Shown: positions 9,299-54,510, counted from the stretch's first letter. The stretch is DNA of 64,000 nucleotides from Thermodesulfovibrionales bacterium (GCA_049302065.1 JBAQLU010000241.1:8756-72755), one strand, 5' to 3'. Notes: generated by a model from the sequence alone, not told the origin. Program-made: numbers and translations.

Positions 9299-9332
9299 AC
9301 ACTCAGTCGGTAATGGGTAGGGCTACATATAT

Positions 9333-9396: not shown

Positions 9397-9441
9397 ATCA
9401 AGCATAAGGAATATCTTCTTACTAAGAATTGCATAATCAAA

Positions 9442-14826: not shown

Positions 14827-14903
<77 letters not shown>

Positions 14904-17831: not shown

Positions 17832-18038
17832 ACTATTTCTCCTTTCGCGGATGAATATATTATATCACAATGATTTCCTTCTTATTTTGAAAGTTCCTGC
17901 AATATTCTCAAGGCTCCGGATTTTATAAAACAAACCAAAACAAAATAGTTTCCTATCTCACTTCCGGTTTGTATTTACCCTCCTGCATTTTTTGTGTTAT
18001 TCTTTCTGAACTTTACTATTTTTTTACTTACAAAACCT

Positions 18039-19853: not shown

Positions 19854-19878
19854 AGAGACTCAACGCCTTTATGGAATC

Positions 19879-21153: not shown

Positions 21154-21231
21154 AATACTTAGTATATAAATGTGGTGTTACTAAGAAGTGCATAAGTAAA
21201 ACCGCATCATATGCGAATGTTGTCATTATCC

Positions 21232-21296
21232 GGCTTGACCGGATAATCCAGTTTTTTCAATAGGTTCTGGATCCCCCGGTCAAGCCGGAGGATGAC
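21232..21296. repeat. Family-A MITE-like palindromic repeat ('aatccag' subfamily)
   Basis: gtcattatccggcttgaccggataatccag...ctggatcccccggtcaagccggaggatgac, in tandem with the copy at 21063. Confidence 0.8.
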
Positions 21297-21375
21297 GGTT
21301 ATGAGTCCTTACTTATGAACTTATCAGTACTTATGAACTCCTTACTAATAAAAAATCGTTTCCCGACCGATGACT

Positions 21376-23644: not shown

Positions 23645-23697
23645 AAATGAGACAGAAAAGCAGGCGCTAACACTGCTATAAATAAGGATACATGACT

Positions 23698-23766
23698 GTC
23701 ATTGCCCGACTTGATCGGGCAATCCAGAGAAAGGAACTGGATTCACCGGTCGAGCCGGAGAATGAC
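23698..23766. repeat. Family-A MITE-like palindromic repeat ('aatccag' subfamily)
   Basis: gtcattgcccgacttgatcgggcaatccagagaaaggaactggattcaccggtcgagccggagaatgac. Confidence 0.8.
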
Positions 23767-23819
23767 AAACAGACGAAACTATGTCGCCATACTAACGACC
23801 GCATTAGTAAATCCGTTCC

Positions 23820-24155
23820 CTATTGAAGCCTCTGATAGTTTCTTAAAAATTTTTCCTTGTCCATAGTTCCATCACCGTATACGTCAAAATACCGTATCCG
23901 GAAAGGGCTGGTTTTTTTATCATCACTCTTATATTTGTAACGATCCCATTCGTCGTTCGTAATAGTGTCGTCCCCGTCGGTATCGATCGTGTTCCATTCC
24001 TCCCTGCTTATTTTGCCATCCTTGTCTTTGTCACAGGCGTCGTAGATTTCATCAGGACTGCATTCAGCTTTCTCATCTTCTGCAAAACATAAGGCAGCTG
24101 TCAGCATCATCATAACTGATACTGCCAGTACAACTATACATCTGAATCTGTTCAT
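23820..24155 (-). CDS. Secreted EF-hand calcium-binding protein
   Basis: 111 aa with a signal peptide. There are three EF-hand loops: 'DKDKDGKISREEW', 'DTDGDDTITNDEW' and 'DVYGDGTMDKEKF'. Confidence 0.75.
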   Translation of the reverse strand: MNRFRCIVVLAVSVMMMLTAALCFAEDEKAECSPDEIYDACDKDKDGKISREEWNTIDTDGDDTITNDEWDRYKYKSDDKKTSPFRIRYFDVYGDGTMDKEKFLRNYQRLQ

Positions 24156-24173
24156 CTGTTCCTCCTTACAGGA

Positions 24174-25586
24174 TCACTCATGGTAAATAATTGCATCTAT
24201 TTTTTCGTTGCTGCGAACTTCGTATGCCAGCTGGGCAGCTTCTTTTTTATTACTGAAATTACCTATCAGAACCCTGTAGATTACACCCGGCTTTTTGGTT
24301 GGGCATTCAAGAGTAAAAGCATCATAGCCTTTTTTTTTATATTTATCTGTGAAATCTTCTGCATTGCTTCTCTCTTTAAATAAGCCGATCTGAACATGGA
24401 CAGGATTGCTTCCATGCTGATTGTTGGGAATCGTAGATTTAAGCAGTTCTCTTTTTTCTATCGGCTTTTGGCCAACTTGCTTCTGAGTTAGTTCAGGCAG
24501 TTTAACGAATGTTTCTGCATGCTTAAAAAATGTGCCCGGCTGTTTTACGGATTCTATTTGTTCAGTTGGTTGTTGAACAGGTTCAGGCACAGGACCTGAT
24601 TGCTTTACGGGTTCCGGCTTTTCAAGAGGTTGTTGATCAGGTTCAGGATCTGTCATTGACTTCTGTGCAGGTTCAGGTTGTCCAACCGGTTGTATAGAAG
24701 ACTGAGACTCCCCTTCAGCAGGCGTATCAGTTTCCTCTACTTTCTTTTTACGGTATTGGACATATGCATCACGCAAAGAAACATAGGGATCAATGGCTGA
24801 TTTCTTAAAGTCCTCATAATCTCCTATATGGAATGTCGTTTCATTCACCTCGTCATAAACCTTTATCCCTACGGCTGCCTCCCATGGGTTGACATAACTG
24901 ACCGGATCCAGGAAACCGTCTCCGACCCTGCCAATTGTATCACGAAGAGACGATGGACCAAGGAAAGGCCAAACAAGATAAAACCCGTGGCCGATACCAT
25001 AACTGCCAAGGGTCTGGCCAAGGTCTTCATCATGCTGTTTGATGCCGAAATCGAGCTTTGCGGCATCAGCAAGACCACCGACCCCGGCTGTTGTGTTATA
25101 AACAAACCTGAGCAGTTCATTTCCGGCGTTTTTTACTTTCAACTGTAAAAGGTTGCTGATAAAACGTATCGGCATGGCAAGATTTGAAAAAAAGTTACTG
25201 ACCGCGAGTCTCATGTCTTCAGGAACTGCCTCTGAATACCCCCGGGCAACAGGTTTCAGTATCCAGAAATAGACCTTATCGTTAAAATGGTACATTGCAT
25301 TGTTCCATGGGCGTAAAGGATCGGATATCTTCACCGTCTCTTCTTCACCCTCTTCTTCGCCTTCATTGTTCCCGGTCGCAACAGATTTCGGCTCCTCTGC
25401 TTTCGCTGGATCCGGTTTTGCCTGGTCTGTTATAAGAGGTTTTTTCTCCTGCTCATGAGGAGTTTTTCCCTCTTCGGTTTCAATGAAAGATTTTTCCAGA
25501 AGATCTCCGGGAGAAACAGCAAATATATGGGAGGAACTCAACGAAAGACATATGAAGATTGCACACACCATAAAAATCAGCTTCAT
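24174..25586 (-). CDS. mlaA: MlaA/VacJ-family protein fused to a Pro-rich linker and C-terminal SPOR domain
   Basis: 470 aa. The MlaA core is 'DPLRPWNNAMYHFNDKVYFWILKPVARGYSEAVPEDMRLAVSNFFSNLAMPIRFISNLLQ'. The linker carries PEPxQxP-type repeats. The C-terminal 'VHVQIGLFKERSNAEDFTDKYKKKGYDAF...YRVLIGNFSNKKEAAQLAYEV' fits the SPOR pattern. Confidence 0.8.
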   Translation of the reverse strand: MKLIFMVCAIFICLSLSSSHIFAVSPGDLLEKSFIETEEGKTPHEQEKKPLITDQAKPDPAKAEEPKSVATGNNEGEEEGEEETVKISDPLRPWNNAMYHFNDKVYFWILKPVARGYSEAVPEDMRLAVSNFFSNLAMPIRFISNLLQLKVKNAGNELLRFVYNTTAGVGGLADAAKLDFGIKQHDEDLGQTLGSYGIGHGFYLVWPFLGPSSLRDTIGRVGDGFLDPVSYVNPWEAAVGIKVYDEVNETTFHIGDYEDFKKSAIDPYVSLRDAYVQYRKKKVEETDTPAEGESQSSIQPVGQPEPAQKSMTDPEPDQQPLEKPEPVKQSGPVPEPVQQPTEQIESVKQPGTFFKHAETFVKLPELTQKQVGQKPIEKRELLKSTIPNNQHGSNPVHVQIGLFKERSNAEDFTDKYKKKGYDAFTLECPTKKPGVIYRVLIGNFSNKKEAAQLAYEVRSNEKIDAIIYHE

Positions 25587-25621
25587 GAACTCCCCTCCTT
25601 TTTCATTACAACCTTTTATTT

Positions 25622-26215
25622 TTATGCCTTTCCGACTTTCTTTCTTAATGTATCGATCAATACTTCAGGCGATTTATTCATGAGGATCTCCCTGAATTGA
25701 TTGCGGTAGTTATTGATCAGGCTTACGCCTTCGATAACAACATCATATACCTTCCATTCTCCATCCTTTTGAATTACCCTGTAGTAAATAGGTATATCAG
25801 CCTTTTTTGTCAGAATTGTAGTTTGCACCTCAAATGTTTTTTCCGAGAGCTGGTTCTCTTTGCTGAAGGCTACCTTTTCATCCGTATAGTTTATGATCTT
25901 ATCAGCATACGCATCTTCAAGGAGAGACTTGTAGAGATCGGTAAACTCATTCTGCTGCGCAGTGTTCAGTTTCTTCCAGTCTATCCCCAATGTCCTCCTT
26001 GAAAGCTCGGAGTAGTCGAACATCTTGTCCGAAATAGACCGGATTTTCTGTCTCTTGGTCTTTTTCCCTGATTCTCCCTTAAGAGCCGGGTCACGTAAAA
26101 CATCAAGCACCTTATTGATGTTTCCTTTGACGCTGTCAAGCGGAGCGCCTGCATAGACTGAGAGCGGAACGATCAGAAGAATGATGAGCGTTAAAGCTAT
26201 TCCCTGCTTTTTCAT
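25622..26215 (-). CDS. mlaC: MlaC/Ttg2D-family periplasmic lipid-binding protein
   Basis: 197 aa with a signal peptide. Typical MlaC layout ('FDYSELSRRTLGIDWKKLNTAQQNEFTDLYKSLLEDAYADKI...WKVYDVVIEGVSLINNYRNQF'). Confidence 0.8.
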   Translation of the reverse strand: MKKQGIALTLIILLIVPLSVYAGAPLDSVKGNINKVLDVLRDPALKGESGKKTKRQKIRSISDKMFDYSELSRRTLGIDWKKLNTAQQNEFTDLYKSLLEDAYADKIINYTDEKVAFSKENQLSEKTFEVQTTILTKKADIPIYYRVIQKDGEWKVYDVVIEGVSLINNYRNQFREILMNKSPEVLIDTLRKKVGKA

Positions 26216-26330
26216 AGCTTCCCCCTTATATTTTTTTGGAGTCTTTATCCTTTTAAACAGATCAATTATATCATTTTCCTACCGGGGTTCAATCAACTTT
26301 TATTAATACTATAGCTATAGCGTGTTTTTT

Positions 26331-26405
26331 GTCATTCCCGAAGTTCGTAATCGGGAATCCATGGGTTTCAATACGTTCTGGATTCCGGGTCAAGCCCGGA
26401 ATGAC
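26331..26405. repeat. Family-A MITE-like palindromic repeat in the divergent mlaC / lipid-cluster promoter region
   Basis: gtcattcccgaagttcgtaatcgggaatccatgggtttcaatacgttctggattccgggtcaagcccggaatgac. Confidence 0.8.
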
Positions 26406-26510
26406 GATTAAAAACCATTGATTAGCGGTTTTTATTGAAAAGTGCCGCTGTAGTAATAATACTACCCTTTACAAGAAGCGTTTTCAACCTTTCCTATAAT
26501 ATATTAATCT

Positions 26511-27338
26511 ATGATATATTATAGATTCAAAATTATGCACTGTAATTTCTTTAAAGATAAAATTGCATTGATAACAGGTAGTTCCCGTGGCATCGGGAGC
26601 GCAATTGCGCGGAATTTTGCCCGGGAGGGCGCTGATATTGTTGTTAATTTCCGCAAATCAGGAGGTAAATCCCAGGAGCAGGGAGAACTCCTGTGTAAAG
26701 ATATCCGGGATATGGGACGCCGTGCCTTCCTCATTCAGGCTGATATAGCTGTGAAGGAATCAGTGAAAGAGATGTTTCATGAAATAAATGAAAAATGCGG
26801 TCGGCTGGACTTTCTCATTCTGAATGCTGCAAAGGCGCCTTTCAAACCATTGGAGAAACTTCCCGAGAGGGAATTGCGACAGCTTGTTGAAACGAATTAC
26901 CTTGGCAACATCTTCTGCGTCCAGGCAGCCCTTCCCTTGCTGGAAAATTCAGCAGGGAAAATCGTTTTTATATCGAGTCTCGGAAGCCGTTTTTACAACC
27001 CTGCATATCCACTTGGAACCATGAAGGCAGCAATGGAATCCGCTGTCAGAGACCTTGCTGAAAGCCTGAGCACAAGGAAGATATCAGTCAATGGCGTATG
27101 CGGAGGCATTGTGAAGACAGACTCTTTTAAAGTCCTCCGTCAGTACTGGGAAGAACTTGACCAGATACCCAATGAGCTTTTTGTTGAACCTGATGAGATA
27201 GCAGACGCTGTCCTTTTCCTCTGTGACCCTGCGAGCAGGGGGATACAGGGGCAGATGATCGTTGTTGACAGGGGACTCAGCAACAGACTTTACAGACCTT
27301 TCCCCAAAGCAGATAAAAAACAGGAATTATCATATTGA
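26511..27338 (+). CDS. SDR-family reductase, FabL-like (putative enoyl-ACP reductase)
   Basis: 'IALITGSSRGIGSAIA' NAD(P)-binding motif. 'ISSLGSRFYNPAYPLGTMKAAMESAVRDLA' resembles the FabL 'SSLGS..Y...Y...KAA' catalytic region. An alternative start is ATG 26535. Confidence 0.7.
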   Translation: MIYYRFKIMHCNFFKDKIALITGSSRGIGSAIARNFAREGADIVVNFRKSGGKSQEQGELLCKDIRDMGRRAFLIQADIAVKESVKEMFHEINEKCGRLDFLILNAAKAPFKPLEKLPERELRQLVETNYLGNIFCVQAALPLLENSAGKIVFISSLGSRFYNPAYPLGTMKAAMESAVRDLAESLSTRKISVNGVCGGIVKTDSFKVLRQYWEELDQIPNELFVEPDEIADAVLFLCDPASRGIQGQMIVVDRGLSNRLYRPFPKADKKQELSY

Positions 27339-27366
27339 AATATATGCCTTATTTGGAGGTTACCTT

Positions 27367-27930
27367 ATGAGCCAGAATTTTATTACAGAAGCAACTGTAT
27401 TTGAGGAAGCCAAAAAAGCGATAGCGGAAACGCTTAATATTGATAAGGATTCCATCAAGCCGGAGAGTTCTCTCATTAAGGATCTGGGCGCAGAGTCTCT
27501 CGATTTCCTCGATATCAATTACCGTCTTGAGCAGGCTTTCGGGATCAAGATGGCACGGCATTTTATCCTTGAGCATATCGAAGAGATGTTCGGTGAGGGC
27601 TCTGCCATTGATGCGAACAGCCAGATTACCGACAAAGCTGTCTCTCTGCTGCAATTCCGCATGGGCGAAAACTTTCCTGAGTTGCGTCCCGGCATGGATA
27701 TGGACGAAGTGCCTGCCCTGGTCACAGTTCAGTCCCTAACAAGGGGCGTGCTGGATATTCTCGACAGCCTCCCTGAAAAGTGTTCAGCCTGCGGAAATTC
27801 TGAATGGCAGTCAGAAAACAGTCTCCGCATCAAATGTGGTTCATGCGGTGAATATGCAGCCTTTACAAATGGCGATGATCTCATAAAGGCCTGGCTGACA
27901 AAGGTCCAGGAAGAAAAGAAGATTTTTTAA
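27367..27930 (+). CDS. Atypical acyl carrier protein with ~100-aa C-terminal extension ending in a CxxC...CxxC zinc ribbon
   Basis: RBS ggagg, then ATG 27367 (MSQNFITEATVFEEAKKAIAETLNIDKDSIKPESSLIKDLGAESLDFLDINYRLEQAFGI). The 'DLGAESLD' motif is the phosphopantetheine-Ser site. The tail contains 'CSACGNSEW...CGSCGEY'. The ORF-track start at 27262 overlaps the preceding gene. Confidence 0.75.
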   Translation: MSQNFITEATVFEEAKKAIAETLNIDKDSIKPESSLIKDLGAESLDFLDINYRLEQAFGIKMARHFILEHIEEMFGEGSAIDANSQITDKAVSLLQFRMGENFPELRPGMDMDEVPALVTVQSLTRGVLDILDSLPEKCSACGNSEWQSENSLRIKCGSCGEYAAFTNGDDLIKAWLTKVQEEKKIF

Positions 27931-27950
27931 TACATCTGCATTCATTTATT

Positions 27951-29246
27951 ATGTCCAGAGAATTTCCGAAAAGAAGGGTAGTTGTAACCGGTTATGGAAT
28001 GATAACTCCCCTCGGGAAAAATACAGAAGAAACATTCAGGAGCGCTGCCAGGGGGCTTTCAGGTATTGATTATATTACCTCTTTTGATACAAAAGGGTTG
28101 CCCTGTCAGATTGGAGGACAGGTACAGGACAGATGGCTTGATGAGATCCATGATCCTGTTGCTCAGCGGTATTATAAATTCTCTGCCCGCGGTCTCAGGT
28201 TGATCAGGGCTGCAACCATCGAGGCAACTGAACAGGCTCAAACTGACAAAATAGCAGCCCGGGAGAGAATCGGCGTCTCTCTCGGTTATCATGCTGATAA
28301 CCCGACTATAGAAGATCTCGTCTTCCTCCACCGGTTCTATAATGGGAATGGTTCCTGGGATATGAAAGGCCTCCTGCAGGCAGGAGGGTACTCGTATCTC
28401 AATTTCTTAAGGAGAAAGCCTGATGTTGTGACATCCATGCTCTCGATACTCTCTAACTGCAAAGGCCCCAACCTATCGATCGTATCCGCATGTGCTGCAG
28501 GCTCTCAGGCAATCGGTGAAGCATACAGGATGCTCCAGGAAGGAAAAGCTGATGTCATGATCGCCGGAGGCTGTGACACCACATTAAATTTTGTAGGGTT
28601 CATAGGTTTTGTGCTGATTAAGGCCTTGTCTGAAAGATATACCACACCCCAAAAAGCGTCGCGGCCATTTGACCGCAAGAGAAACGGGTTCGTGATGTCA
28701 GAAGGCGCAGGGACTATTATTCTGGAAGAACTCGAGCATGCACGCTCACGCGGTGTGCCGGTATACGGAGAGATCCTCGGATACGCCTCCTCTGCCGATG
28801 CATACAGGATTACTGATACGCACCCAAAAGGACTGGGCGCAATTCTGGCTATAAAAGGTGCTTTGGAGGATGCCGGCATCTCTTCTGAAGACGTTGATTA
28901 TATCAATGCGCACGGCACATCCACAGTACAAAACGACCTGACTGAAACTGTGGCGATAAAGGAGGTATTCGGCGAAAGGGCAAGGAGTATCCCGGTAAGC
29001 TCCAATAAATCCATGCTGGGACATAGCATAGGCGCTGCAGGCGCCATAGAGTGCATACTGACACTTGCCGGAATGAATCAATCCACCATCCTTCCCACAA
29101 TTAATTATGAGTTCCCTGATCCAAAGTGCGATCTTGATTATGTCCCCAATGTGGCAAGAACACAGGAACACAGGATCGCCATATCGAATTCATTCGGCTT
29201 TGGAGGGCAGAATGCATGCCTCTGTATCGGCAAATTTGATGGATAG
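27951..29246 (+). CDS. Beta-ketoacyl-ACP synthase (FabF/FabB-like, catalytic Cys-His-His intact)
   Basis: 431 aa. Active-site 'GPNLSIVSACAAGSQAIGEA', 'NAHGTST' and 'GHSIGAAG'. Confidence 0.9.
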   Translation: MSREFPKRRVVVTGYGMITPLGKNTEETFRSAARGLSGIDYITSFDTKGLPCQIGGQVQDRWLDEIHDPVAQRYYKFSARGLRLIRAATIEATEQAQTDKIAARERIGVSLGYHADNPTIEDLVFLHRFYNGNGSWDMKGLLQAGGYSYLNFLRRKPDVVTSMLSILSNCKGPNLSIVSACAAGSQAIGEAYRMLQEGKADVMIAGGCDTTLNFVGFIGFVLIKALSERYTTPQKASRPFDRKRNGFVMSEGAGTIILEELEHARSRGVPVYGEILGYASSADAYRITDTHPKGLGAILAIKGALEDAGISSEDVDYINAHGTSTVQNDLTETVAIKEVFGERARSIPVSSNKSMLGHSIGAAGAIECILTLAGMNQSTILPTINYEFPDPKCDLDYVPNVARTQEHRIAISNSFGFGGQNACLCIGKFDG

Positions 29247-29272
29247 AAAATATAATTACGCCCATTTAAGAA

Positions 29273-30556
29273 ATGTCCCGGACCGATAACCGTGTCGTCA
29301 TAACCGGGGCAGGCATAGTCTGCTCACTCGGCATTGGAAGAGAAGAGGTATGGAACGCCCTGCTTTCCGGTAAGACAGGAATCCGCTCTATCGAAGGATT
29401 TGATGTATCAGAGTTTGAATGCACGTCTGCTGCACAGGTAAAAGATATTAATCCACGAGACCTCGGTATCCATCCAAGGGATTCCCGCATTATGGATACC
29501 CATTCATATATGCTCATGAAATGTGCGCGTGACGCCTTTTCCCAGGCAGGCCTTGATAAGGCTTCCCTCCCGAAAGAAGATATAGGGTTTTTTGCGGGTA
29601 TGGGAATGGTCGACTATAAGGCAGAAGACCTCCTTCCTTCTGTCCTGAAATCCCTGAATTCCTCCGGCAGCCTGAATTACGATATGTTTTATACAGATGG
29701 ATACAGAGAGATTTATCCGCTCTGGCCGTTGTCAATGTTGAACAATATCAGCTTCTGTCAGGTTGCCATAAATCTCGATATGAGGGGTGAAAATACAGTA
29801 TTTTCGCCTCATGCCGACTCCGGCGCTCAGGCCGTTGCAGAAGGGATGCAGACATTGCTGGACGGTACAGCACAGGCTGTTCTTGCCGGAGGCGTCAGTG
29901 AGAAGATATCACCCTTCAGTCTTGCACGAGGTCTTCTCAGCGGCATCCTTAATACTTCGAATGACCTGACAGAACCGGCATGCAGACCTTTTGCTGCAGA
30001 CAGGAACGGGACTGTACCTGGGGAAGGCTGCGGCGTCCTGACACTCGAATCCCGTCAATCTGCAATTGAGCGGAGGATGAAATGTCTTGCATCTGTCACC
30101 GGATACAGCTTCGCATTTGAGTCTGACGGAAAGTTTTCAGGCCCTGCTTCACATGCACTTGGCAATGCAATGCAGGGAGCCCTTAACAGCGCAGGTCTTA
30201 AGCCTTCCGATATTGACCTGATTATCGCACACGGTGATGGAACCATATCAGGAGATAAGAATGAAATCCATGCGATTCATGAAATCTTTGCTGATTGTAT
30301 AGATAAGGTAAATGTATTTTCTTCAAAGGGCGCATTGGGCCACCTCCTTGCAGGCGCGCCTGCTGTTGATGTCATACTCGGAATCTCGATGCTTGAGTCA
30401 GGCATAGTCCCGCAGACAATTACTTCTTCGCCGGACAGCAGTATCCTGTTTAATCTTATTAGAAAACCTTTAAGAATGAACCTGCAAAAGATTCTGATCA
30501 ACTGTCAAAGCTGCGAAGGCCAGGCTGCATCAATTATAATAGAGGCTGTCAGATGA
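29273..30556 (+). CDS. KS-like protein lacking the active-site Cys (chain-length-factor-like partner)
   Basis: 427 aa with a thiolase fold. The aligned active-site stretch is 'GENTVFSPHADSGAQAV', with Ala (29813-29815) where the nucleophilic Cys should be. His motifs are retained ('AHGDGT', 'GHLLAGA'). Confidence 0.8.
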   Translation: MSRTDNRVVITGAGIVCSLGIGREEVWNALLSGKTGIRSIEGFDVSEFECTSAAQVKDINPRDLGIHPRDSRIMDTHSYMLMKCARDAFSQAGLDKASLPKEDIGFFAGMGMVDYKAEDLLPSVLKSLNSSGSLNYDMFYTDGYREIYPLWPLSMLNNISFCQVAINLDMRGENTVFSPHADSGAQAVAEGMQTLLDGTAQAVLAGGVSEKISPFSLARGLLSGILNTSNDLTEPACRPFAADRNGTVPGEGCGVLTLESRQSAIERRMKCLASVTGYSFAFESDGKFSGPASHALGNAMQGALNSAGLKPSDIDLIIAHGDGTISGDKNEIHAIHEIFADCIDKVNVFSSKGALGHLLAGAPAVDVILGISMLESGIVPQTITSSPDSSILFNLIRKPLRMNLQKILINCQSCEGQAASIIIEAVR

Positions 30557-30591
30557 ACAATCCAAGAGCATATTTGCCAGGTATTAAATCT

Positions 30592-30670
30592 GTCATTCCG
30601 GCTCGTCCGGAATCTTTCCGAGTCCCCCTTCATAAAGGTTTAAAAAGGATTGCGGACAAGCCGCAATGAC
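30592..30670. repeat. Family-A MITE-like palindromic repeat inside the lipid cluster
   Basis: gtcattccggctcgtccggaatctttccgag...aaaaaggattgcggacaagccgcaatgac. Confidence 0.8.
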
Positions 30671-30744
30671 AGAACTCATCAAGAAGATGAGGTTTTACTT
30701 ATGGTCTTATTAGTAATTTCAAAACGGAACGTAGAGGAATAAAT

Positions 30745-31188
30745 ATGCGATTTCTATTTTATGATGCAGTTACACATATAGAAAAAGGCAAATCAATTAC
30801 AGGGGTAAAGAGCTTTTCTCTTTCAGAGGAATTCCTCAGGGGACATTATGCAAAGATTGCCATCGTCCCCGGGGCTATTATGATCGAGGCAATGGCCCAG
30901 CTCCTTGGATGGCTGATCATCTATTCTCATGATTTCAGGCTCACTGCGATCATGTCACTGATTGAGGATGTTACGGTCACTTCGACCTTACGGCCCGGGT
31001 TCAGGGCAGAGATCCGTGGTGAAATCGTCTCAACATCAAGGAGAGACTCGCTCGGCATGGCCGGCATATACGTCAACGATAAATGTATTGCTTCCCTGAA
31101 CCGGATCATTTACAGCCATTTTCACGATGTACATTCGGAAGAACTCATTAAGAGGTTCGAATATTACAGCGGATGGAAAATTCAGTGA
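30745..31188 (+). CDS. Hot-dog fold 3-hydroxyacyl-ACP dehydratase (FabZ/FabA-like, divergent)
   Basis: 147 aa. 'FLRGHYAKIAIVPGAIMIEAMAQLLGW' aligns to the FabZ 'HFP..PVMPGVL.IEA.AQ' motif. Confidence 0.75.
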   Translation: MRFLFYDAVTHIEKGKSITGVKSFSLSEEFLRGHYAKIAIVPGAIMIEAMAQLLGWLIIYSHDFRLTAIMSLIEDVTVTSTLRPGFRAEIRGEIVSTSRRDSLGMAGIYVNDKCIASLNRIIYSHFHDVHSEELIKRFEYYSGWKIQ

Positions 31189-32489
31189 ATCCGGATAAAA
31201 ACCATAAAAAAAGAAGGGTAGTCGTTACCGGCCTTGGAATGGCAACCTCCCTTGGTCTTCATGTTGAAGAAAGCTGGGAGAAAGCCCTTAAGGGTATTTC
31301 CGGCATATCAAAGCTCACCCTGCCCTTTGCTGAAAAATCTCCTGTTCAGGCGGTCGGTGAGGTGGGAGAAAAAGATTGGCAGAAGATACAGGAGGAATTT
31401 AAAGAAGAATCCCTAACAGAAGGTGAAAGGAGAACCCTCTTTGCCCTCTGGGCAGCAAAGAATGCGCTCAGCGACGCAGGCATTTCAGACTATGGGAAAC
31501 AGAGAGATAATTGCGGGGTTGCCCTTGCAGCAGGGCTTGGCATCAACAGATTAGAAGACATTCAAAACTGGATTGACGATAGAAATTTTAATATAAAAAG
31601 ATTTGGTAAAGAATACAGTCGCGTGCACAGAGAGTCCATCATGAAAAACAATTCGCACAGGCCTTCAGCACTCATCGGCAATAGATTCGGTCTGCATGGC
31701 ATGAATTGCACTATCACAACAGCCTGTGCATCTGCGACCCAGGCTATAGGGATAGGCTATCGCGCAGTGCAAAGGGGAGATGCTGACCTGATGGTTGCAG
31801 GCGGAGCTGATTCGATGATTAATCCTGTAGGGCTCGTCTTTTTTGTCCTGCTCAGCGCTGCTGCAACCTCATCTGAAAGTCCTCAGACCCTCTGCCGGCC
31901 ATTTGACAGGAGGAGGGCAGGACTGGTTATGGGGGAAGGGGCCGGCATTGCAATCCTCGAAGAAAAATCACACGCTGTCAGCAGAGGAGCAAAGATATAT
32001 TGTGAAGTTGCAGGGTACGGTTCATCAATGGATGCATACCAGGTGACAGCCCCACATCCGCAGGGCCGCGGCGGTGAACAGTCAATGAGGGCTGCTCTGA
32101 ATGATGCTGGTCTGAATAATCATGACATAGATTATATTAATGCTCATGGAACGAGCACAAAACTGAATGACGCAATGGAGACAGTTGCAATAAAAAATGT
32201 TTTTCAGGATCACGCCCGGAGGATTGCGATCAGTTCAAGCAAGTCCCTGATCGGGCATTTACTGGCAGCATCAGGCGGCCCGGAATTTGTTTTCACGGTA
32301 TTGAGCACCGAAAGGAACAAAATCCATCCTACAATAAATCTGACCGGTCCTGATCCAAAGTGTGACCTCGATTATGTTCCGAATGTGCACAGGTCAATGA
32401 CGGTAAGGGCTGCGCTCTCAAATTCCTTTGGCTTCGGAGGGCAGAACGCATCCATCATCACTAAAAAGTATCCTGGAGAAGAACAATGA
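31173..32489 (+). CDS. Beta-ketoacyl-ACP synthase (catalytic Cys-His-His intact)
   Basis: 438 aa. 'GMNCTITTACASATQAIG', 'NAHGTST' and 'GHLLAASG'. Overlaps the upstream DH by 16 nt. Confidence 0.9.
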   Translation: MENSVNPDKNHKKRRVVVTGLGMATSLGLHVEESWEKALKGISGISKLTLPFAEKSPVQAVGEVGEKDWQKIQEEFKEESLTEGERRTLFALWAAKNALSDAGISDYGKQRDNCGVALAAGLGINRLEDIQNWIDDRNFNIKRFGKEYSRVHRESIMKNNSHRPSALIGNRFGLHGMNCTITTACASATQAIGIGYRAVQRGDADLMVAGGADSMINPVGLVFFVLLSAAATSSESPQTLCRPFDRRRAGLVMGEGAGIAILEEKSHAVSRGAKIYCEVAGYGSSMDAYQVTAPHPQGRGGEQSMRAALNDAGLNNHDIDYINAHGTSTKLNDAMETVAIKNVFQDHARRIAISSSKSLIGHLLAASGGPEFVFTVLSTERNKIHPTINLTGPDPKCDLDYVPNVHRSMTVRAALSNSFGFGGQNASIITKKYPGEEQ

Positions 32490-33238
32490 AAATAGATTTA
32501 ACAGGCAGGATTGCTCTCGTTACCGGAGGTTCAAGGGGGATCGGAAGGGAGACAAGTCTGCTCCTTGCACAGGCAGGAGCATATGTCATAATCAATTACA
32601 ACAGGTCAGTGGAAGAAGCTGAAAAGATACGCGAAGAGATTATCCGGCAGGGAGGCAAGGCTGCGATCTTCCAGGCTGATATAGCAAAACCCGGGGAGGT
32701 CGAAAAGCTCTTTGCCTATATCAAAACCACTTTCAATAAAATCGATATCCTGGTCAATAATGCAGGGATTATCAGGGATAACCTCCTTTTGAGTATGGGG
32801 CTTCCTGATTGGGACAGGGTGCTTGAACTGAACCTGAGAGGCGCCTTCCTATGTTCAAAATTCGCTGCTGAAATGATGCTGCTGCAACATGCAGGGAAGA
32901 TCATCAATATTTCCTCAGTAAGTGCGATCAAAGGCGTCCGCGGACAGACAAACTATGCCGCTTCAAAAGGTGGTTTGATATCCTTCACCAGAGCCTGTGC
33001 CGTCGAGTTGTCAGGCAAGGGCATACAGGTCAATGCTGTATTGCCGGGGGTGATTGTCACAGATATGAGTACCAGGGCAAGAAAGAGGGCAGGTGAAGAT
33101 ATCCTTAAAGGGATACCATGCGGCAGGTTCGGAGAACCCCGTGATGTTGCGCTCCTTGTTTTATTTCTTGCATCCAATATGTCAGATTATATTACGGGAC
33201 AGGCCATATCGGTTGACGGAGGGTTAAGCGTATCATGA
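32486..33238 (+). CDS. fabG: 3-oxoacyl-ACP reductase (FabG-type SDR)
   Basis: 250 aa. 'ALVTGGSRGIG', 'NNAG' and 'SSVSAIKGVRGQTNYAASKGG' (Ser-Tyr-Lys). Has a 4-nt overlap with both neighbours. Confidence 0.9.
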   Translation: MKIDLTGRIALVTGGSRGIGRETSLLLAQAGAYVIINYNRSVEEAEKIREEIIRQGGKAAIFQADIAKPGEVEKLFAYIKTTFNKIDILVNNAGIIRDNLLLSMGLPDWDRVLELNLRGAFLCSKFAAEMMLLQHAGKIINISSVSAIKGVRGQTNYAASKGGLISFTRACAVELSGKGIQVNAVLPGVIVTDMSTRARKRAGEDILKGIPCGRFGEPRDVALLVLFLASNMSDYITGQAISVDGGLSVS

Positions 33239-33624
33239 TGAAGATTCTTCAGGGAATAGATATTGTAGATATTTCTAAACTAAAACGCATAATACAGAAA
33301 AACAGCGCTTTTATTTCAGATATTTTTACTGAAAAGGAGAGAGAATACTGCGAGTCGAGGAAAGATCCATATATACACTTTGCAGGCCGTTTTGCTGCAA
33401 AAGAGTCATTTGTGAAAGCCCTCGGTACAGGATTTTCCGGAACAGGCATTGATCATCTCTTCCAGGAGATCGAAGTTCTCCCGGCTCCTTCAGGGAAGCC
33501 GGAGCTTCATGTAAAAGGCTGGGCTGAAAAGCTTGCAAAAAAAAGAAGGATTTGCCAGTGGACTGTTTCTATCTCACATGCATCGGATTATGCCGTAGCT
33601 TCAGTCATTCTAATCGGGAACTGA
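33235..33624 (+). CDS. acpS: Holo-ACP synthase (AcpS-type 4'-phosphopantetheinyl transferase)
   Basis: 129 aa. '[10 protein letters not shown]', '[12 protein letters not shown]' and '[15 protein letters not shown]' are classical AcpS motifs. Confidence 0.9.
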
Positions 33625-33645
33625 ACCCGGGATACAGGAGGATAC

Positions 33646-34089
33646 ATGCGATATTTGCTTATTGACCGCATCACTGAATGGAAGGCTAATGAAGGTATCA
33701 GGGGCATAAAAAATGTTGCCATGAGTGAGGATTTCCTCGAATTCCATTTCCCGAAAAACCCGATCATGCCCGGTGTGCTCTTGCTTGAGGCAATAGCTCA
33801 GCTTACCGGTTGGCTTGTTGCAGCATCCTCTGATTTCAAAGACTGGTTTCTTATAACAAAGGTTCACAAATGCAAGTTCTATGGTTTTGCATTTCCAGGT
33901 GACCGCGTTGATCTCGAGGTGAAACTGATCCAGGGACCTGAAAAAGATAAAATAATGTATTCGGGTGTTGGTATGGTTGATGGAAAAAAGAAGATCATTG
34001 CTGAGTTTGAGGGAGAGACAATATCTTTTGAAGAGATAGAAGACGCCAATGAACAGAAGAGATTCTTCAAGCTTCTGACGAGGGGATGA
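33646..34089 (+). CDS. 3-hydroxyacyl-ACP dehydratase, FabZ-like
   Basis: 147 aa. Carries the canonical hot-dog DH motif '[24 protein letters not shown]'. Confidence 0.85.
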
Positions 34090-34092
34090 TAC

Positions 34093-35385
34093 GTGCATGA
34101 CAGAGAAGTAATAATAACAGGAATGGGACTCATAACACCCACAGGGAACAGTGTTACAGAAAACTGGGGGAATGTAAAGGCATTGAAGACAGGGATAGCA
34201 CATTATCCCAATGATGGATTGCCGGGCTTTCTGCAGTTTATGGGGAAGGTCAAAGAAGCCGAAACAGACAGGGATATTCCTCACAAACTCTTGGGGCAGA
34301 TGAAATTTCGGAACCGCGGCTCGATCCTCGGATTCAATGCAGCACGTGATGCATTATCTTCATCCGGTATAAATATCACGGACATACAACCCGGCAGAAG
34401 GGCTTTGTTCATTGCATCAGGAGACACAACAAAAGTCGGCTGTGATTTCATGTATCCTGCCACAAAGGATGGTACCCATGGGAAATGGCAGACAATAGAC
34501 CATGAGAGGTTAAACAGGTCAACCCTCGATAAGGTCAATCCTTTTTTTCTCCTTGAATCCATTAATAATAATCTCTTCAGCTTTCTTTCAGCCTATCTGG
34601 AATTCATGGGACCCAATACAAGTCTTGCAAGCCACTCTCCATGCGGAGGGAATGCAGTCGAACTCGCATGCAGGAGTATCAGACAGGGCAAAGCAGATGC
34701 TGCAATGGCAGCAGGCTGCGGCAACTGGCTCACAGAGATTCCTCTCTATGAGATGGAAGGACTGGGCCTTGTCTCTCAGTGCAGAGATGGTATCCTTTCT
34801 TACAGGCCTTTTGACTGGAGAAGAGACGGCTTTATTCCCGGCGAGGGAGGGGCTGCGCTTTTTCTTGAGGCCTCAGACATTGCTGAGAAGCGCGGTGCAA
34901 CTATTCTGGGGAAAATAAAAGGATTCGGGAACAGCATAGCATTCTCGAATGACCGCGGGATAAGCGTTCATTCACAGGTTACTCTCTGTAGCATTGCTGC
35001 TGCATTAAATGAAACCTCATGTGATCCCGGAGACCTTGCCTTTATCAGCCCCCACGGTAGCGGCTCTCAAAAAGGCGACAGATCCGAACTGAGATCAATC
35101 ATGCAGGTATTCGACAAAGAGAAACATGCAATTCCCATCTGCGGCATGAAGCCTTACACCGGACATCTCGGTGCAGCAAGTGATATTGCCGAGATAATAT
35201 TAGGGATTAAAGCTGTTCAGGATAAAATAGCTCCTGCTACGCTGAACTTCAGGGAGAGTGAAAAGGAATTTTCTGAACTCAGGATATCGGGTTCTCATCA
35301 GCAATGTCAAAAAGATCATTTTTTATCTGTCAGCTATGGCATTGGCGGACAGTCTTCCTCTGTTGTAGTACAGGTTTTAAAGTGA
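34093..35385 (+). CDS. KS-like protein with Ser in place of the active-site Cys (second CLF-like partner)
   Basis: 430 aa with a GTG start. The aligned stretch is 'GPNTSLASHSPCGGNAVELA', with Ser (34636-34638) at the nucleophile position and a Cys two residues downstream. 'SPHGSGS' and 'GHLGAAS' are retained. Confidence 0.8.
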   Translation: MHDREVIITGMGLITPTGNSVTENWGNVKALKTGIAHYPNDGLPGFLQFMGKVKEAETDRDIPHKLLGQMKFRNRGSILGFNAARDALSSSGINITDIQPGRRALFIASGDTTKVGCDFMYPATKDGTHGKWQTIDHERLNRSTLDKVNPFFLLESINNNLFSFLSAYLEFMGPNTSLASHSPCGGNAVELACRSIRQGKADAAMAAGCGNWLTEIPLYEMEGLGLVSQCRDGILSYRPFDWRRDGFIPGEGGAALFLEASDIAEKRGATILGKIKGFGNSIAFSNDRGISVHSQVTLCSIAAALNETSCDPGDLAFISPHGSGSQKGDRSELRSIMQVFDKEKHAIPICGMKPYTGHLGAASDIAEIILGIKAVQDKIAPATLNFRESEKEFSELRISGSHQQCQKDHFLSVSYGIGGQSSSVVVQVLK

Positions 35386-35421
35386 ACTTACTAACAAGAC
35401 CATAAGTAAACCCACATAATC

Positions 35422-35487
35422 GTCATTCCCCGACTCGATCGGGGAATCCAGAAACGACTGGATTCCCCAGTCAAGCTGGAGAATGAC
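35422..35487. repeat. Family-A MITE-like palindromic repeat
   Basis: gtcattccccgactcgatcggggaatccagaaacgactggattccccagtcaagctggagaatgac. Confidence 0.8.
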
Positions 35488-35583
35488 AAAATTTGCATCT
35501 CATGTGGTTTTACTTATGAACTCCTTAGTAAACGCTCCAAATATTTTTTCAATTGTATTCTTTGATACGACTGATGTGCTGAA

Positions 35584-36564
35584 GTGAAGAGTGCAGATAC
35601 ACAATCCCCTAAAAAGGCCAAAAAGAAGCGTTCCAAAAAGGGGAAAACTCTTCAGGTTGTTGAGTATATAGCTGTTTATACCCTTCTTGTCTTTTGCCGC
35701 ATAACACCACTTAAAATCATCCATCTTATAAGCAGCCTGCTGGGAAACCTTTTCTATCTTCTCGTATCGAAACGACGCACGATTGCAATCAATAACCTTA
35801 AACATGCTTATTCAGGAGAGAAAGATGATAAGGAGATCAGAAAGATCGCACGCATGAGCTGCATATCGTTTTTTCTCACTTTCCTTGAGGGTTCAAAATT
35901 TCAGGATGTTTTGAAATCAGACAGCGTTCAGGATGATCTGCGGAAAGCATCACTCGGGCTTAATGAACTTTTTCAGAAGGCAAAAAGAATCCACGATGAT
36001 TCTAAAGGCTGCATTTTCGTGACACCTCATATCGGAAACTGGGAACTCCTGCCCCATGTAAGTTCAGTTGTAGGCATCCCTTTGGTGGTCGTGGTAAGAC
36101 CACTCGACAACATCTATCTCGAAAAACTGATTTACAAAAAACGGGCCGGCAGCGGACAGGTTATTATCCCGAAGAAGAATGCCATGTTCACCCTCCAGAA
36201 GACATTGCAGCATGGAAAATCCATCGGCATGCTGCCGGATCAGAGCACCATGCGGGGGATTTCGGTTGATTTCTTCGGACGTAAAGCTACCACGACACCC
36301 GTACCAGCCATACTTTCTATTGCATACAAAAGACCGATTGTGGTAGTTGCGTGCTGCAGGAGCAGAGATGGATACAGTTTTGAAGGCATTGTCTCTGACC
36401 CTGTTTCGCCCGGAGAATACCGAAGCGAAAAAGAAGAGATCTTTCGTTTGACGGAAGAGATCAACAAAAAGATGGAACTAATTATCCGGAAATACCCGGA
36501 ACAATACCTCTGGATGCATAACCGCTGGAAGACCTATAAACATAAAAAAGCATTAATGACGTGA
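35584..36564 (+). CDS. LpxL/HtrB-family (lipid A biosynthesis lauroyl-type) acyl-ACP-dependent acyltransferase
   Basis: 326 aa. N-terminal TM helix, catalytic 'TPHIGNWELL' (HX4E/D), 'MLPDQS', 'FFGRKATTTPVPAILS' and C-terminal 'YPEQYLWMHNRWK'. GTG start as in the ORF track. Confidence 0.8.
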   Translation: MKSADTQSPKKAKKKRSKKGKTLQVVEYIAVYTLLVFCRITPLKIIHLISSLLGNLFYLLVSKRRTIAINNLKHAYSGEKDDKEIRKIARMSCISFFLTFLEGSKFQDVLKSDSVQDDLRKASLGLNELFQKAKRIHDDSKGCIFVTPHIGNWELLPHVSSVVGIPLVVVVRPLDNIYLEKLIYKKRAGSGQVIIPKKNAMFTLQKTLQHGKSIGMLPDQSTMRGISVDFFGRKATTTPVPAILSIAYKRPIVVVACCRSRDGYSFEGIVSDPVSPGEYRSEKEEIFRLTEEINKKMELIIRKYPEQYLWMHNRWKTYKHKKALMT

Positions 36565-38780: not shown

Positions 38781-39950
38781 ATGAAGATCCTTTATTACGA
38801 CTGTTTTTCAGGCATCAGCGGCGACATGAACCTTGCTGCCATGATTGACCTTGGTGTGCCCGGAGAATACCTCAAGCAGGAACTTGCCAGACTGTTCCTG
38901 AAAGATTATTCCATCCTGATTTCTGACGAGATCCGGAATGGCATAAAAGGCACTAAAGTGCGTATCCAGACAGAAGCTGATTCATATGAGCATCGCAATC
39001 TGAATGACATCCTTCAACTGATTCATAAGAGCGGTCTTAATGAAAATGTCTGTTACGGTGCAGAGAGGATGTTCAGAACACTCGCAGAAGCTGAAGCAAA
39101 AGTGCACGGGACTTCTACTGATACCATTCATTTTCACGAATTGGGCGCTGTTGATTCGATACTTGATATCGTTGGCGCTGCAATATGTTTCGATTATCTG
39201 AAGCCCGACCGTATCATCAGTTCCTCCGTTGAGCTTGGAAGCGGATTTGCCGGGGGCGAACACGGAACACTTCCTGTGCCGGCTCCTGCAACAGTTGAGA
39301 TCCTGAAAAACATCCCTGTAAAAAAAGGGTCTCAACCATTCGAAGCCACCACTCCGACAGGCGCTGTAATACTTGCATGCAATGTGAATGAATTCACTGA
39401 TAACCTTTCTTTCAGGATTCAGAAAACTGCGTATGGCATCGGCAACAGGCAATCAGCAATCCCGAATCTCCTCAGGGTTCACCTCGGCAAAACTCTTGCA
39501 AGGCCGGACCAGGAACACCACTCGTTGATTGAGTGCAATATTGATGACATGAACCCTGAACTCATTGATTACATTATGGACAAGCTGTTTGCCGAAGGGG
39601 CTGATGACGTCTTCATTACTCCGATAATCATGAAGAAGACCCGGAACGCATCACAATTGAGCGTTCTCTGCAGCAATGAGAAAAAAGAGAAACTCATTTC
39701 ATTGATACTGCATGAGACGTCTACCTTTGGGCTGAGAACTTGCTCTGTTGAGAAGACAGCCCTGCCAAGAGAATTCATATCCGCAGATACCCGATACGGA
39801 AAGATAACCCTGAAAAAGGCTCTTCTTCCAAACGGAGAGAGCAAGGTGAAACCCGAATATGATGAGATTGCCGCCATCGCAAAGGCGCACAATAAGCCGA
39901 TACGAGAGGTATACCAGGAAATCATAAATGATCTTTCTCAGGAGAAATGA
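38781..39950 (+). CDS. larC: Nickel-pincer cofactor biosynthesis protein LarC (DUF111)
   Basis: 389 aa. The N-terminus 'MKILYYDCFSGISGDMNLAAMIDLGV' is typical of LarC, and it is followed by larE and larB. Confidence 0.9.
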   Translation: MKILYYDCFSGISGDMNLAAMIDLGVPGEYLKQELARLFLKDYSILISDEIRNGIKGTKVRIQTEADSYEHRNLNDILQLIHKSGLNENVCYGAERMFRTLAEAEAKVHGTSTDTIHFHELGAVDSILDIVGAAICFDYLKPDRIISSSVELGSGFAGGEHGTLPVPAPATVEILKNIPVKKGSQPFEATTPTGAVILACNVNEFTDNLSFRIQKTAYGIGNRQSAIPNLLRVHLGKTLARPDQEHHSLIECNIDDMNPELIDYIMDKLFAEGADDVFITPIIMKKTRNASQLSVLCSNEKKEKLISLILHETSTFGLRTCSVEKTALPREFISADTRYGKITLKKALLPNGESKVKPEYDEIAAIAKAHNKPIREVYQEIINDLSQEK

Positions 39951-54481: not shown

Positions 54482-54510
54482 TAAAATGACATGAAAATAT
54501 TATTTAATAA

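Follow-up and report, generated by a model that had tools for sequence, protein, structure and literature searches.

Aryl polyene (APE) clusters combine a ketosynthase (KS) with a partner that lacks the active-site cysteine (Cys-less), two hot-dog dehydratases, one ketoreductase (KR), one or more dedicated acyl carrier proteins (ACPs), and an acyltransferase of the PF03279 family that anchors the product to an envelope lipid. In rhizobia, lipid A's very-long-chain fatty acid is linked to a cluster of six open reading frames (ORFs), acpXL-fabZXL-fabF2XL-fabF1XL-adhA2XL-lpxXL (PMC11901934; PMC4402001). The anammox 'Cluster I' (amxACP, amxFabZ, and amxFabF2/amxFabFmut) resembles type II fatty acid synthase (FAS II) and contains a special ACP as well as a FabF and an altered FabF, which are reported to form a heterodimer similar to a KS with its chain-length factor (CLF); this heterodimer reportedly decarboxylates malonyl-ACP and starts synthesis without FabH (bioRxiv 10.64898/2026.05.19.726425). 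FASII-like clusters with divergent FabF paralogues have also been linked to unusual lipids (Rattray et al. 2009, PMC2649909). Here, we analyzed a block of eleven genes on the plus strand (26511-36564) of a 64-kb window, that is, the whole stretch of DNA under study, derived from an 86.7-kb contig of a metagenome-assembled genome (MAG) of an uncultured Thermodesulfovibrionales bacterium; unless a related locus is named, all coordinates refer to this window. With moderate confidence, and from sequence comparisons, we read the block as a dedicated type II FAS-like line that would work on its own carrier protein and would end in a lipid A transferase.

Gene calls were checked by ORF coordinates, Pfam, NCBIfam, and translations, and these confirmed eleven co-directional genes with the functions that an earlier, sequence-only reading of the same DNA had assigned to them. 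The first gene encodes a FabL-like short-chain dehydrogenase/reductase (SDR), a putative enoyl-ACP reductase (ER; 26511-27338), which was recognized by the Pfam models adh_short_C2, adh_short, and KR as well as by NCBIfam and PDB matches. It is followed by a carrier protein of 187 amino acids with a Pfam PP-binding domain and a four-cysteine tail, designated here as ACPzn (27367-27930), the start of which was taken as the ATG at 27367, where its homologues begin, and not as the mechanical start at 27262. Next come a FabF-like KS with a Cys-His-Lys-His set of residues (KS1; 27951-29246; Pfam ketoacyl-synt N and C domains) and, 26 nt further, a CLF-like KS paralogue in which the cysteine is replaced by alanine (CLF1; 29273-30556). 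The rest of the block codes for a FabZ-like hot-dog dehydratase (DH1; 30745-31188; Pfam FabA, 45 bits), another FabF-like KS with Cys-His-Lys-His (KS2; 31173-32489; Pfam, NCBIfam, and alignment), a FabG-like 3-oxoacyl-ACP reductase (KR; 32486-33238; NCBIfam), an AcpS-type phosphopantetheinyl transferase (33235-33624; Pfam ACPS and TIGR00516), a second FabZ-like dehydratase (DH2; 33646-34089; Pfam FabA, 75.7 bits), a KS paralogue with serine in place of cysteine that retains His-Lys-His (CLF2; 34093-35385), and, finally, an LpxL/HtrB-family acyltransferase with a HIGNWE motif and an N-terminal hydrophobic segment (35584-36564; PF03279, 143.8 bits). Both Cys-less paralogues had been predicted and were verified by alignment of the four KS paralogues, and of the overlaps of 4-16 nt announced by the same reading we found three, of 16 (between DH1 and KS2), 4, and 4 nt. 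It was also right that the block has no FabD, FabH, thioesterase, AMP-ligase, or exporter, since no Pfam domain of these kinds was detected in the block or within 10 kb of it; the domain scan found no further fab gene elsewhere in the window. On the other hand, that reading had missed the four-cysteine C-terminal domain of the ACP, a repeat insertion in the gap between CLF1 and DH1, and the fact that the first three genes form a separable module. With the exception of AcpS, every component of the block fell short of the NCBIfam equivalog cutoffs, and the names given by the NCBI annotation pipeline (PGAP) to the four products that we checked were all generic: 'SDR family oxidoreductase' for ER, 'phosphopantetheine-binding protein' for ACPzn, 'beta-ketoacyl-ACP synthase family protein' for KS1, and '3-oxoacyl-ACP reductase family protein' for KR.

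A scan of one genome per GTDB species revealed ACPzn in 280 species, mainly Nitrospirota and Desulfobacterota, and the 80 best loci (designated by L-numbers) were read at ±10 kb around the ACPzn match, which gave about 1.3 Mb in total; all counts of residues in enzyme orthologues given below were drawn from these 80 loci. Most of them belong to Nitrospirota, including Candidatus Magnetobacterium and Magnetominusculus, while others come from MAGs labelled Syntrophobacteraceae, Desulfobacteraceae, or Desulfosarcina. The ER-ACPzn-KS1 trio was present in all 80 loci and is the best conserved part (57-97% identity). A long form ending in LpxL was found in 23 loci, a short form that lacks CLF1 and KS2 and also ends in LpxL in three, CLF2 followed by a condensation-domain protein in place of LpxL in two, and the trio followed by unrelated genes in about 28, while in the remaining loci the layout is interrupted by a contig end. 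The nearest public relative is a contig labelled 'Nitrospira sp.' (VGWX01000008; L002), in which the individual proteins are 91-97% identical to those of the window and synteny extends from a helicase gene to LpxL. Because the same order recurs in the 23 long-form and three short-form loci of other species, the block goes far beyond chance. No description of this cassette was found in the searchable literature, and we conclude that the system is real, widely conserved, and apparently undescribed. The condensation-domain protein is free-standing (about 430-440 amino acids; PF00668, 41 bits); it follows LpxL in L047 (19224-20549), replaces it after CLF2 in L048 (18980-20275) and L061 (18115-19407), and may be an alternative output enzyme.

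ACPzn consists of an ACP core, in which Ser44 lies within DLGAESLDFLD, and a C-terminal tail of about 88 amino acids with a CxxC...CxxC pattern. The tail has no Pfam or NCBIfam match, but its four cysteines are invariant in 41-44 sequences, including members of 26-46% identity. Whole-length ACPzn has 721 homologues, the 120 matches listed being all at least 69% identical, while an exhaustive search with the tail only yielded just 40 representative clusters among 1.84 billion proteins, nearly all of them proteins of about 185-190 amino acids with the match at the same position. AlphaFold modelling (AF2) with a shallow alignment gave a predicted local distance difference test (pLDDT) score of 67.6, which rose to 92.7, with a predicted template modelling (pTM) score of 0.87, after distant members had been added (41 sequences). 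A Foldseek comparison of this model with the PDB returned matches that cover the ACP part only, and the longest alignments were with a 'specialized ACP' of Rhodopseudomonas palustris (3LMO/2KW2), which is also the top PDB sequence match of ACPzn. The best NCBIfam model was NF005079 (PRK06508), the AcpXL model, on which a 52-amino-acid fragment of 2KW2 scores 98.8 bits; ACPzn reached 54.5 bits on it (cutoff 83) and 48 bits on the housekeeping ACP equivalog (cutoff 70.45). Since the AcpXL model and structure are the nearest and yet the score stays below the cutoff, these comparisons indicate that the core is AcpXL-like but that ACPzn is not a member of the AcpXL family. In the cluster set, a 78-amino-acid fragment of the ACPzn tail (member P0464) bears the Joint Genome Institute (JGI) name 'ribosomal protein S27AE', which denotes a zinc-ribbon protein, and this naming is an independent hint that the tail may resemble a zinc ribbon. 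The searchable literature yielded no account of a fusion between an ACP and a zinc ribbon, and an ACP with a four-cysteine tail would represent a new carrier-protein architecture, confined to about 40 sequence clusters among the 1.84 billion proteins.

On the fabF equivalog TIGR03150 (cutoff 493.75), KS1 and KS2 scored 436.7 and 435 bits, respectively, and both exceeded a FabF subfamily cutoff (422 vs 387). Their top PDB matches are entries of 3-oxoacyl-ACP synthase 2 (343 bits), with weaker matches to the actinorhodin KS (232 bits) and to 6SMO, a 'PKS_KS domain' protein (222 bits). The active-site cysteine is present in 72 of 72 KS1 and 35 of 35 KS2 orthologues, and the Cys-His-Lys-His set is kept. 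At the same position, 36 CLF1 orthologues carry alanine (25), serine (6), or glycine (5), with both histidine positions partly lost, whereas CLF2, for which 699 homologues were found, has serine in 29 of 30 orthologues and keeps His, Lys, and His. Thus, the block displays a KS/CLF-style feature, i.e., a KS gene adjacent to a Cys-less KS paralogue whose substitution is conserved in orthologues, although the position of the classical CLF glutamine is occupied by Ala/Ser/Gly in CLF1 and by Ser in CLF2, and not by Gln. In a comparison with the PDB, both CLFs were nearer to FabF than to the solved CLFs of type II polyketide synthases (PKSs). They scored 85-99 bits against the second chain of 9S5H, which we merely guess to be the anammox FabF pair (a literature search on 9S5H gave nothing), and 148-166 bits against ordinary FabF. 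With its conserved Ser-His-Lys-His, CLF2 is the best candidate for FabH-independent priming, and it offers a concrete target for studying how chains are begun and measured in type II synthases when FabH is lacking.

Among the remaining enzymes, ER has FabL as its best NCBIfam model (208.6 bits, cutoff 328) and the NADPH-dependent enoyl-ACP reductase 3OIC as its best PDB match (134.8 bits, FabG entries reaching at most 113); its motif SSLGSRFYNPxYPLGxMK, conserved in 77 orthologues, has Tyr-x5-Lys instead of the classical YxxxK. KR scored 275.9 bits on TIGR01830 (cutoff 297.75) and 243 on the FabG subfamily model NF009466 (cutoff 222). DH1 reached 58-60 bits on FabZ models, which is below their cutoffs, and DH2 97.8 bits on NF000582 (cutoff 113), and the catalytic His and Glu are kept in all orthologues of both (31/31 and 30/30, respectively); DH2 orthologues at other loci also carry an ApeI-like Pfam match. 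AcpS passed the acpS model TIGR00516 (74 bits, cutoff 59.8), but its gene is absent from the otherwise complete blocks L034, L038, L043, L068, L072, and L076.

The acyltransferase matches PF03279 across its full length, has a hydrophobic N-terminus, and contains an HX4D/E-type motif, H[ILF]GNWE being present in 24 of 24 orthologues. Its best NCBIfam model was 'lipid A biosynthesis lauroyl acyltransferase' (PRK06553; 143 bits, cutoff 273), with PRK08419 also matching, and its best PDB match was the lipid A acyltransferase 5KN7, followed more weakly by a phosphatidylinositol mannoside (PIM) acyltransferase. Of the 28 loci in which the position directly after CLF2 can be seen, 26 have this gene there. 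In a clade with a split system, the ER-ACPzn-KS1 trio is located after bamA-skp-lpxD-fabZ-lpxA-lpxI-gnnA-gnnB, with this arrangement fully visible in seven loci, including L025, and a part of the lpxD-fabZ-lpxA-lpxI-gnnA-gnnB neighbourhood visible in six further ones; the GnnA/GnnB pair was assigned by domain (a GFO/IDH/MocA oxidoreductase and a DegT aminotransferase). A search with LpxL then led to L088, L089, and L090, where the eight-gene half is placed two genes from lpxB-waaA-lpxK; it reads CLF1-DH1-KS2-KR-AcpS-DH2-CLF2-LpxL in L089 and L090, while L088 shows only DH2-CLF2-LpxL. Assembly JACQZF01 holds both halves, on contig 16 (L090) and on contig 74 (the trio-only L013), and in two further MAGs the close spacing of protein accession numbers hints at the same situation. 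As the other eight genes were found on a second contig of the same assembly, we rejected the idea that trio-only genomes contain a reduced system and regard trio-only loci as halves of a split one. The synteny of the split system supports lipid A as the likely destination. In addition, L082, a 4.7-Mb contig, contains a divergent cassette whose flanks carry two LpxL-family genes that are not orthologous, an MsbA-like ABC transporter, and LpxB, and in L087 (511-2614) a distant ACPzn of 184 amino acids has a KS gene on one side and an SDR on the other, with an LpxA paralogue as the very next gene. The latter has hexapeptide repeats and an Acetyltransf_11 match and points to a different kind of link between ACPzn and lipid A acylation. 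Being independent of one another, these arrangements provide the principal evidence for lipid A as the recipient of the product. Small toxin-antitoxin-like genes (a weak PIN match and ParE) were noticed in or just upstream of the eight-gene half, at 7614-8137 in L090, where the insertion sits between AcpS and DH2, and at 937-1415 in L088.

From the observed gene content, residues, and synteny, we infer the following biochemical steps. AcpS would attach phosphopantetheine to Ser44 of ACPzn, and since the block has no malonyl transferase, malonyl groups would be loaded by one encoded elsewhere in the genome. As FabH is lacking too, the chain would probably be started by decarboxylation of malonyl-ACPzn on a heterodimer of a KS and a Cys-less paralogue, most plausibly CLF2, for which the anammox FabF2/FabFmut pair provides a precedent. 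KS1, probably with CLF1, and KS2, probably with CLF2, would then extend the chain, each unit being reduced by KR, DH1/DH2, and the FabL-like reductase to give a largely saturated chain, and the two KS/CLF-like pairs would determine how long it becomes or what pattern it has. Most likely, the LpxL-family enzyme would move this chain from acyl-ACPzn to a Kdo2-lipid IVA-type lipid A as a secondary acyl group. By analogy, such a pathway resembles the rhizobial AcpXL/LpxXL route in function, while its parts are different ones that derive from FabF and its carrier is of a new kind. If true, it would be a second, independently evolved private fatty-acid line feeding lipid A. The groups that carry it are Thermodesulfovibrionia, magnetotactic Nitrospirota, and sulfate-reducing or syntrophic Desulfobacterota, and the rigidity of the membrane, its permeability, and its recognition could be influenced by a special chain on lipid A.

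The synthase core also occurs without LpxL. In Nocardia brasiliensis (contigs L083 and L084, 8579-20660), an ACPzn relative of 216-219 amino acids (35% identity) is followed by the same core genes in the order KS1 (46%), CLF1 (32%), DH1 (35%), KS2 (39%), a radical SAM gene, AcpS (34%), KR (31%), DH2 (38%), CLF2 (29%), and, as the last one, a FabL-like SDR (39%). The CLF2 counterpart keeps its serine and the SDR has Tyr-x6-Lys. Nine of the ten genes were counted as keeping the order of the block, the reductase gene having moved to the end. The cluster has no LpxL, it is surrounded by genes for an aminotransferase, methyltransferases, FAD monooxygenases, an amine oxidase, and AfsA-like, FabD-like, and WS/DGAT proteins, and we found no link to any known Nocardia product. 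Likewise, L085 contains ten core genes and L086 a shorter set, both without LpxL. Therefore, LpxL appears to be an output module of diderm lineages and not a part of the core, and since its genes are shared with Nocardia, the core itself appears to be a reusable engine. As N. brasiliensis is culturable and genetically tractable, it also opens an experimental route. These findings led us to consider, tentatively and as a conjecture that may well prove wrong, that the ACPzn cassette represents an unrecognised, ancient family of type II synthases separate from FAS II, APE, and aromatic PKS systems, in which the zinc-ribbon-tailed carrier would be a new docking or chain-shielding device, the Ser-type KS paralogue would prime without FabH, and the two KS/CLF-like pairs would fix an unusual chain, used as a signature secondary acyl group of lipid A in Nitrospirota and Desulfobacterota and re-used for a secondary metabolite in Nocardia. 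Were this so, the use in lipid A would be an independent invention of the rhizobial AcpXL/LpxXL strategy.

Several observations weigh against a lipid A-directed, reducing pathway: (i) the LpxL-family protein misses every curated LpxL/LpxM cutoff, (ii) PF03279 also holds enzymes with substrates other than lipid A, and a PIM acyltransferase is among the weaker matches, (iii) a housekeeping fabZ likewise sits among lpx genes, so that adjacency to lpx alone does not prove a special product, (iv) the ER was assigned by a FabL similarity that lies below the cutoff, and it has Tyr-x5-Lys where FabL has Tyr-x6-Lys, and (v) the same core lacks LpxL in L085, L086, and N. brasiliensis, which makes no lipopolysaccharide. 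Moreover, the literature searched contained no structure of lipid A from this lineage; to our knowledge, there is no published outer-membrane chemistry for the groups that carry the block, and our literature search found none.

Some of these points would fit a variant in which the same synthase serves an LpxL-family enzyme that acylates another envelope lipid, such as a lysophospholipid, a glycolipid, or an aminolipid, a role that has been proposed for the LpxL-family acyltransferase of APE clusters. We consider this variant rather unlikely, although PF03279 includes enzymes other than those of lipid A, with a PIM acyltransferase model and structures being weakly matched, all scores on lipid A models are below cutoff (143 vs 273 for the best one), NCBI names many of the LpxL orthologues 'lysophospholipid acyltransferase family protein', and the condensation-domain protein follows or replaces LpxL in L047, L048, and L061. 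What speaks for lipid A instead is that the best family and structure matches are late acyltransferases of lipid A, that both split halves adjoin Raetz-pathway genes, with LpxL itself near lpxB-waaA-lpxK, and that L082 adds LpxB and an MsbA-like transporter.

KS + Cys-less KS pairs, two dehydratases, and one KR make up the parts list of APE and ishigamide-type systems. The block might accordingly be a cluster for a pigment or another secondary metabolite, of either the highly reducing type II PKS or the APE kind, with LpxL as an incidental neighbour and the product released or displayed independently of lipid A, and, apart from the parts list, this is favoured by the ApeI-like match of DH2 orthologues, by the Nocardia core being embedded among aminotransferase, radical SAM, methyltransferase, FAD monooxygenase, and AfsA-like genes, and by the tie between FASII-like clusters with divergent FabF paralogues and unusual lipids (Rattray et al. 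2009, PMC2649909). We nevertheless find such a cluster distinctly improbable, as the block has no starter-activating ligase, thioesterase, or exporter, its FabL-like reductase speaks against a polyene, KS1 and KS2 are far nearer to FabF (435 bits) than to other KS family models, taken to be of APE and PKS type (202-249 bits), the CLFs barely match PRK06147, and LpxL accompanies the cassette in 26 of 28 loci across two phyla.

Desulfobacterota and Nocardia have ordinary FAS systems, and the cassette was found in Desulfobacterota-labelled MAGs and in Nocardia. Furthermore, a separate FabZ encoded in lpxD-fabZ-lpxA scored 207 bits in L021, where it is located 7 kb from the cassette, and 200 bits in L025 (cutoff 113), that is, at housekeeping grade, whereas the cassette dehydratases scored 58-98 bits; therefore, the latter are not the sole FabZ homologues in relatives. 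Searches for a canonical acpP with E. coli and B. subtilis ACP queries matched only ACPzn in the window and in the 80 loci, an absence that says little, since the loci span only ±10 kb; within the same span, canonical fabH, fabD, fabF, and fabG did not turn up either. The scores below threshold, the generic PGAP names, and the occurrence in Desulfobacterota and Nocardia argue for an accessory system. That the block is the housekeeping fatty acid synthase or elongation core of the lineage, with ACPzn as its main ACP and a position among lpx genes that parallels fabZ in lpxD-fabZ-lpxA, is very improbable: the order ER-ACPzn-KS1 does resemble fabG-acpP-fabF, no other part is as well conserved as this trio (57-97% identity, 80/80 loci), KS1 and KS2 pass a FabF subfamily cutoff (422 vs 387) and AcpS the acpS one, and neither the window nor the roughly 1.3 Mb from related loci showed a canonical acpP, but that absence is weak given their ±10-kb span, L021 and L025 have a FabZ of housekeeping grade in addition to the cassette, the equivalog cutoffs for ACP, FabF, FabG, FabZ, and FabL are all missed, PGAP labels ACPzn merely 'phosphopantetheine-binding protein', FabD and FabH are not in the block, AcpS is missing from some complete blocks, and the cassette occurs in groups that have ordinary FAS systems.

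The dedicated, lipid A-directed line thus remains our preferred reading, and the sequence-only reading had anticipated much of it. Its proposal that the pathway has a carrier to itself and stands apart from housekeeping FAS II agrees with the scores below cutoff and with the separate FabZ, and its link to an LpxL-type acyltransferase and lipid A was strengthened by the lpx synteny in relatives, in which the order of the eleven genes, whose conservation it had left as a question, is kept in 23 long-form and three short-form loci. The possibility it had named as fatal, that these are the only fab and acp genes in the genome, fails for FabZ, which stands beside the cassette at 200-207 bits in L021 and L025. 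Its term 'self-contained' applies only in part, given that the malonyl transferase has to be supplied from outside the block. Its central inference was largely right, with a long chain and lipid A as the acceptor as its conjectural parts, but it found no support with respect to the neighbouring Mla genes.

These neighbours, all on the minus strand, are an EF-hand protein with a signal-peptide-like N-terminus (23820-24155), a MlaA + SPOR fusion (24174-25586), and a MlaC-like protein (25622-26215), and Pfam confirmed the identities given to them before. They had also been proposed to serve as a lipid-trafficking module, but their adjacency to the block is kept only in L002, which is 91-97% identical, and we therefore rejected them as members of the system; in L017, L026, and L069 a MlaC-like gene is merely in the vicinity. 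For the MlaC-like protein of the window, the MlaC model gave 45 bits (cutoff 195), less than the 92.6 bits (cutoff 160) of HpnM, a model associated with hopanoids. CLF1 and DH1 are separated by a 189-nt gap, which does not point to a missing gene, a possibility that was rejected, as it is due to a palindromic repeat insertion of about 175 nt that is absent from L002 (93% identical), which has 14 nt there; the repeat folds as a long hairpin (-54.6 kcal/mol, z = -4.1). Palindromic repeats resembling miniature inverted-repeat transposable elements (MITE) or repetitive extragenic palindromes (REP) fill both large gaps of the operon (30557-30744 and 35386-35583), with related copies in other intergenic regions near 2978, 6204-6239, 9329-9397, 21178-21329, 23667-23769, 54409-54444, 55549-55619, and 59798-59835 and similar cores in the Nitrospirota loci L012, L013, L017, L030, and L051. 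A scan for promoters and terminators gave counts no better than those of shuffled sequences.

Elsewhere in the window, three co-directional genes just downstream of bipA (38781-41514) constitute a gene set for the nickel-pincer cofactor, encoding proteins that resemble LarC (a PF01969 nickel-insertion protein), LarE (a PP-loop ATPase), and LarB (a member of the AIR-carboxylase family). A type IV pilus or type II secretion-like cluster at 51690-60541 comprises a T2SSE ATPase, T2SSF, N-methyl pilin-like proteins, and a secretin, together with three consecutive ORFs without a Pfam match (55654-58108). On the minus strand, 11760-14508 carries a cdaA (DAC domain)-ybbR-glmM operon, which is typical of c-di-AMP control, and a single tRNA gene (14827-14900) lies just upstream of it. 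Finally, at 17994-20973, an ORF of 619 amino acids with DUF4388 overlaps the next ORF, a T2SSE-family ATPase, by 131 nt, and for one of these ORFs the mechanical start codon is probably incorrect.

When set against the known systems, the block has in common with the rhizobial cluster a dedicated ACP, FabZ-like and FabF-like enzymes, and an LpxL-family transferase within one co-directional cluster, and the ACPzn core shares the SLDFLDI motif with AcpXL, whose model and structure are its nearest. It differs in having eleven genes and not six, in gene order, in the phyla concerned, in the lack of an Adh, in its own KR, ER, and AcpS, in its two KS/CLF-like pairs and two dehydratases, and in the additional four-cysteine tail of ACPzn (about 88 amino acids, a putative zinc ribbon). 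Scores on models that we take, with profile lengths as a guide, to represent the rhizobial FabF1XL, FabF2XL, and LpxXL families stayed well below their cutoffs (PRK06501, 328 and 312 bits vs 629; PRK06519, 44-48 vs 320; PRK06553, 143 vs 273). With APE clusters, the block shares the PF03279-family acyltransferase and two FabA-fold dehydratases, including the ApeI-like match of DH2 orthologues. Unlike them, it has no aryl-starter adenylating enzyme, thioesterase, methyltransferase, or LolA/MMPL genes, and indeed no AMP-binding, thioesterase, LolA, or MMPL domain was detected in the eleven genes, their flanks, or the related loci, in accordance with what the sequence-only reading had said of starter activation and export; in addition, it has a conserved FabL-like reductase, KSs that are FabF-like rather than APE-like, and an ACP of a different family. 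The models PRK09185 (231-249 bits vs 407), PRK07103 (216-227 vs 445), and PRK06147 (30-47 vs 342), which we take to represent APE/PKS-type KS families, scored below fabF (435). Therefore, orthology to either the acpXL or the APE clusters was rejected on the basis of curated-model scores and gene content, and, together with gene order, this upholds the earlier statement that the block matches neither of them gene for gene.

The pairing of a FabF with an altered FabF recalls both anammox Cluster I and the FASII-like clusters noted by Rattray et al. (PMC2649909). In comparison with anammox Cluster I, the block contains no radical SAM or phytoene-desaturase genes and its output is an LpxL-type transferase; amxFabFmut loses the whole triad, whereas CLF2 keeps Ser-His-Lys-His, and CLF1 and CLF2 are no nearer to the second chain of 9S5H than to ordinary FabF. 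Adjacent genes for a KS and a Cys-less KS, as well as a discrete KR, DH, and ACP, are common to the block, the ishigamide system (Iga10-13/16), and aromatic type II PKSs, but the CLF position carries Ala/Ser and not Gln, an enoyl-reductase-like SDR and a lipid acyltransferase are present, and FabF is a closer match than either the actinorhodin KS/CLF (1TQY) or the KS of the ishigamide system (6KXD). With canonical FAS II, the block shares enzyme folds and the reaction cycle, its KSs being nearest to the FabF type and its SDR to 3OIC, and it departs from it in lacking FabD and FabH, in its two extra Cys-less KS paralogues, and in the putative zinc-ribbon tail of its ACP. In genome mining, blocks of this kind risk being mislabelled as generic FAS or aryl-polyene clusters. 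Judged by analogy, the block comes closest in its presumed function to the rhizobial acpXL-lpxXL cluster, while its parts resemble those of APE and highly reducing type II PKS systems.

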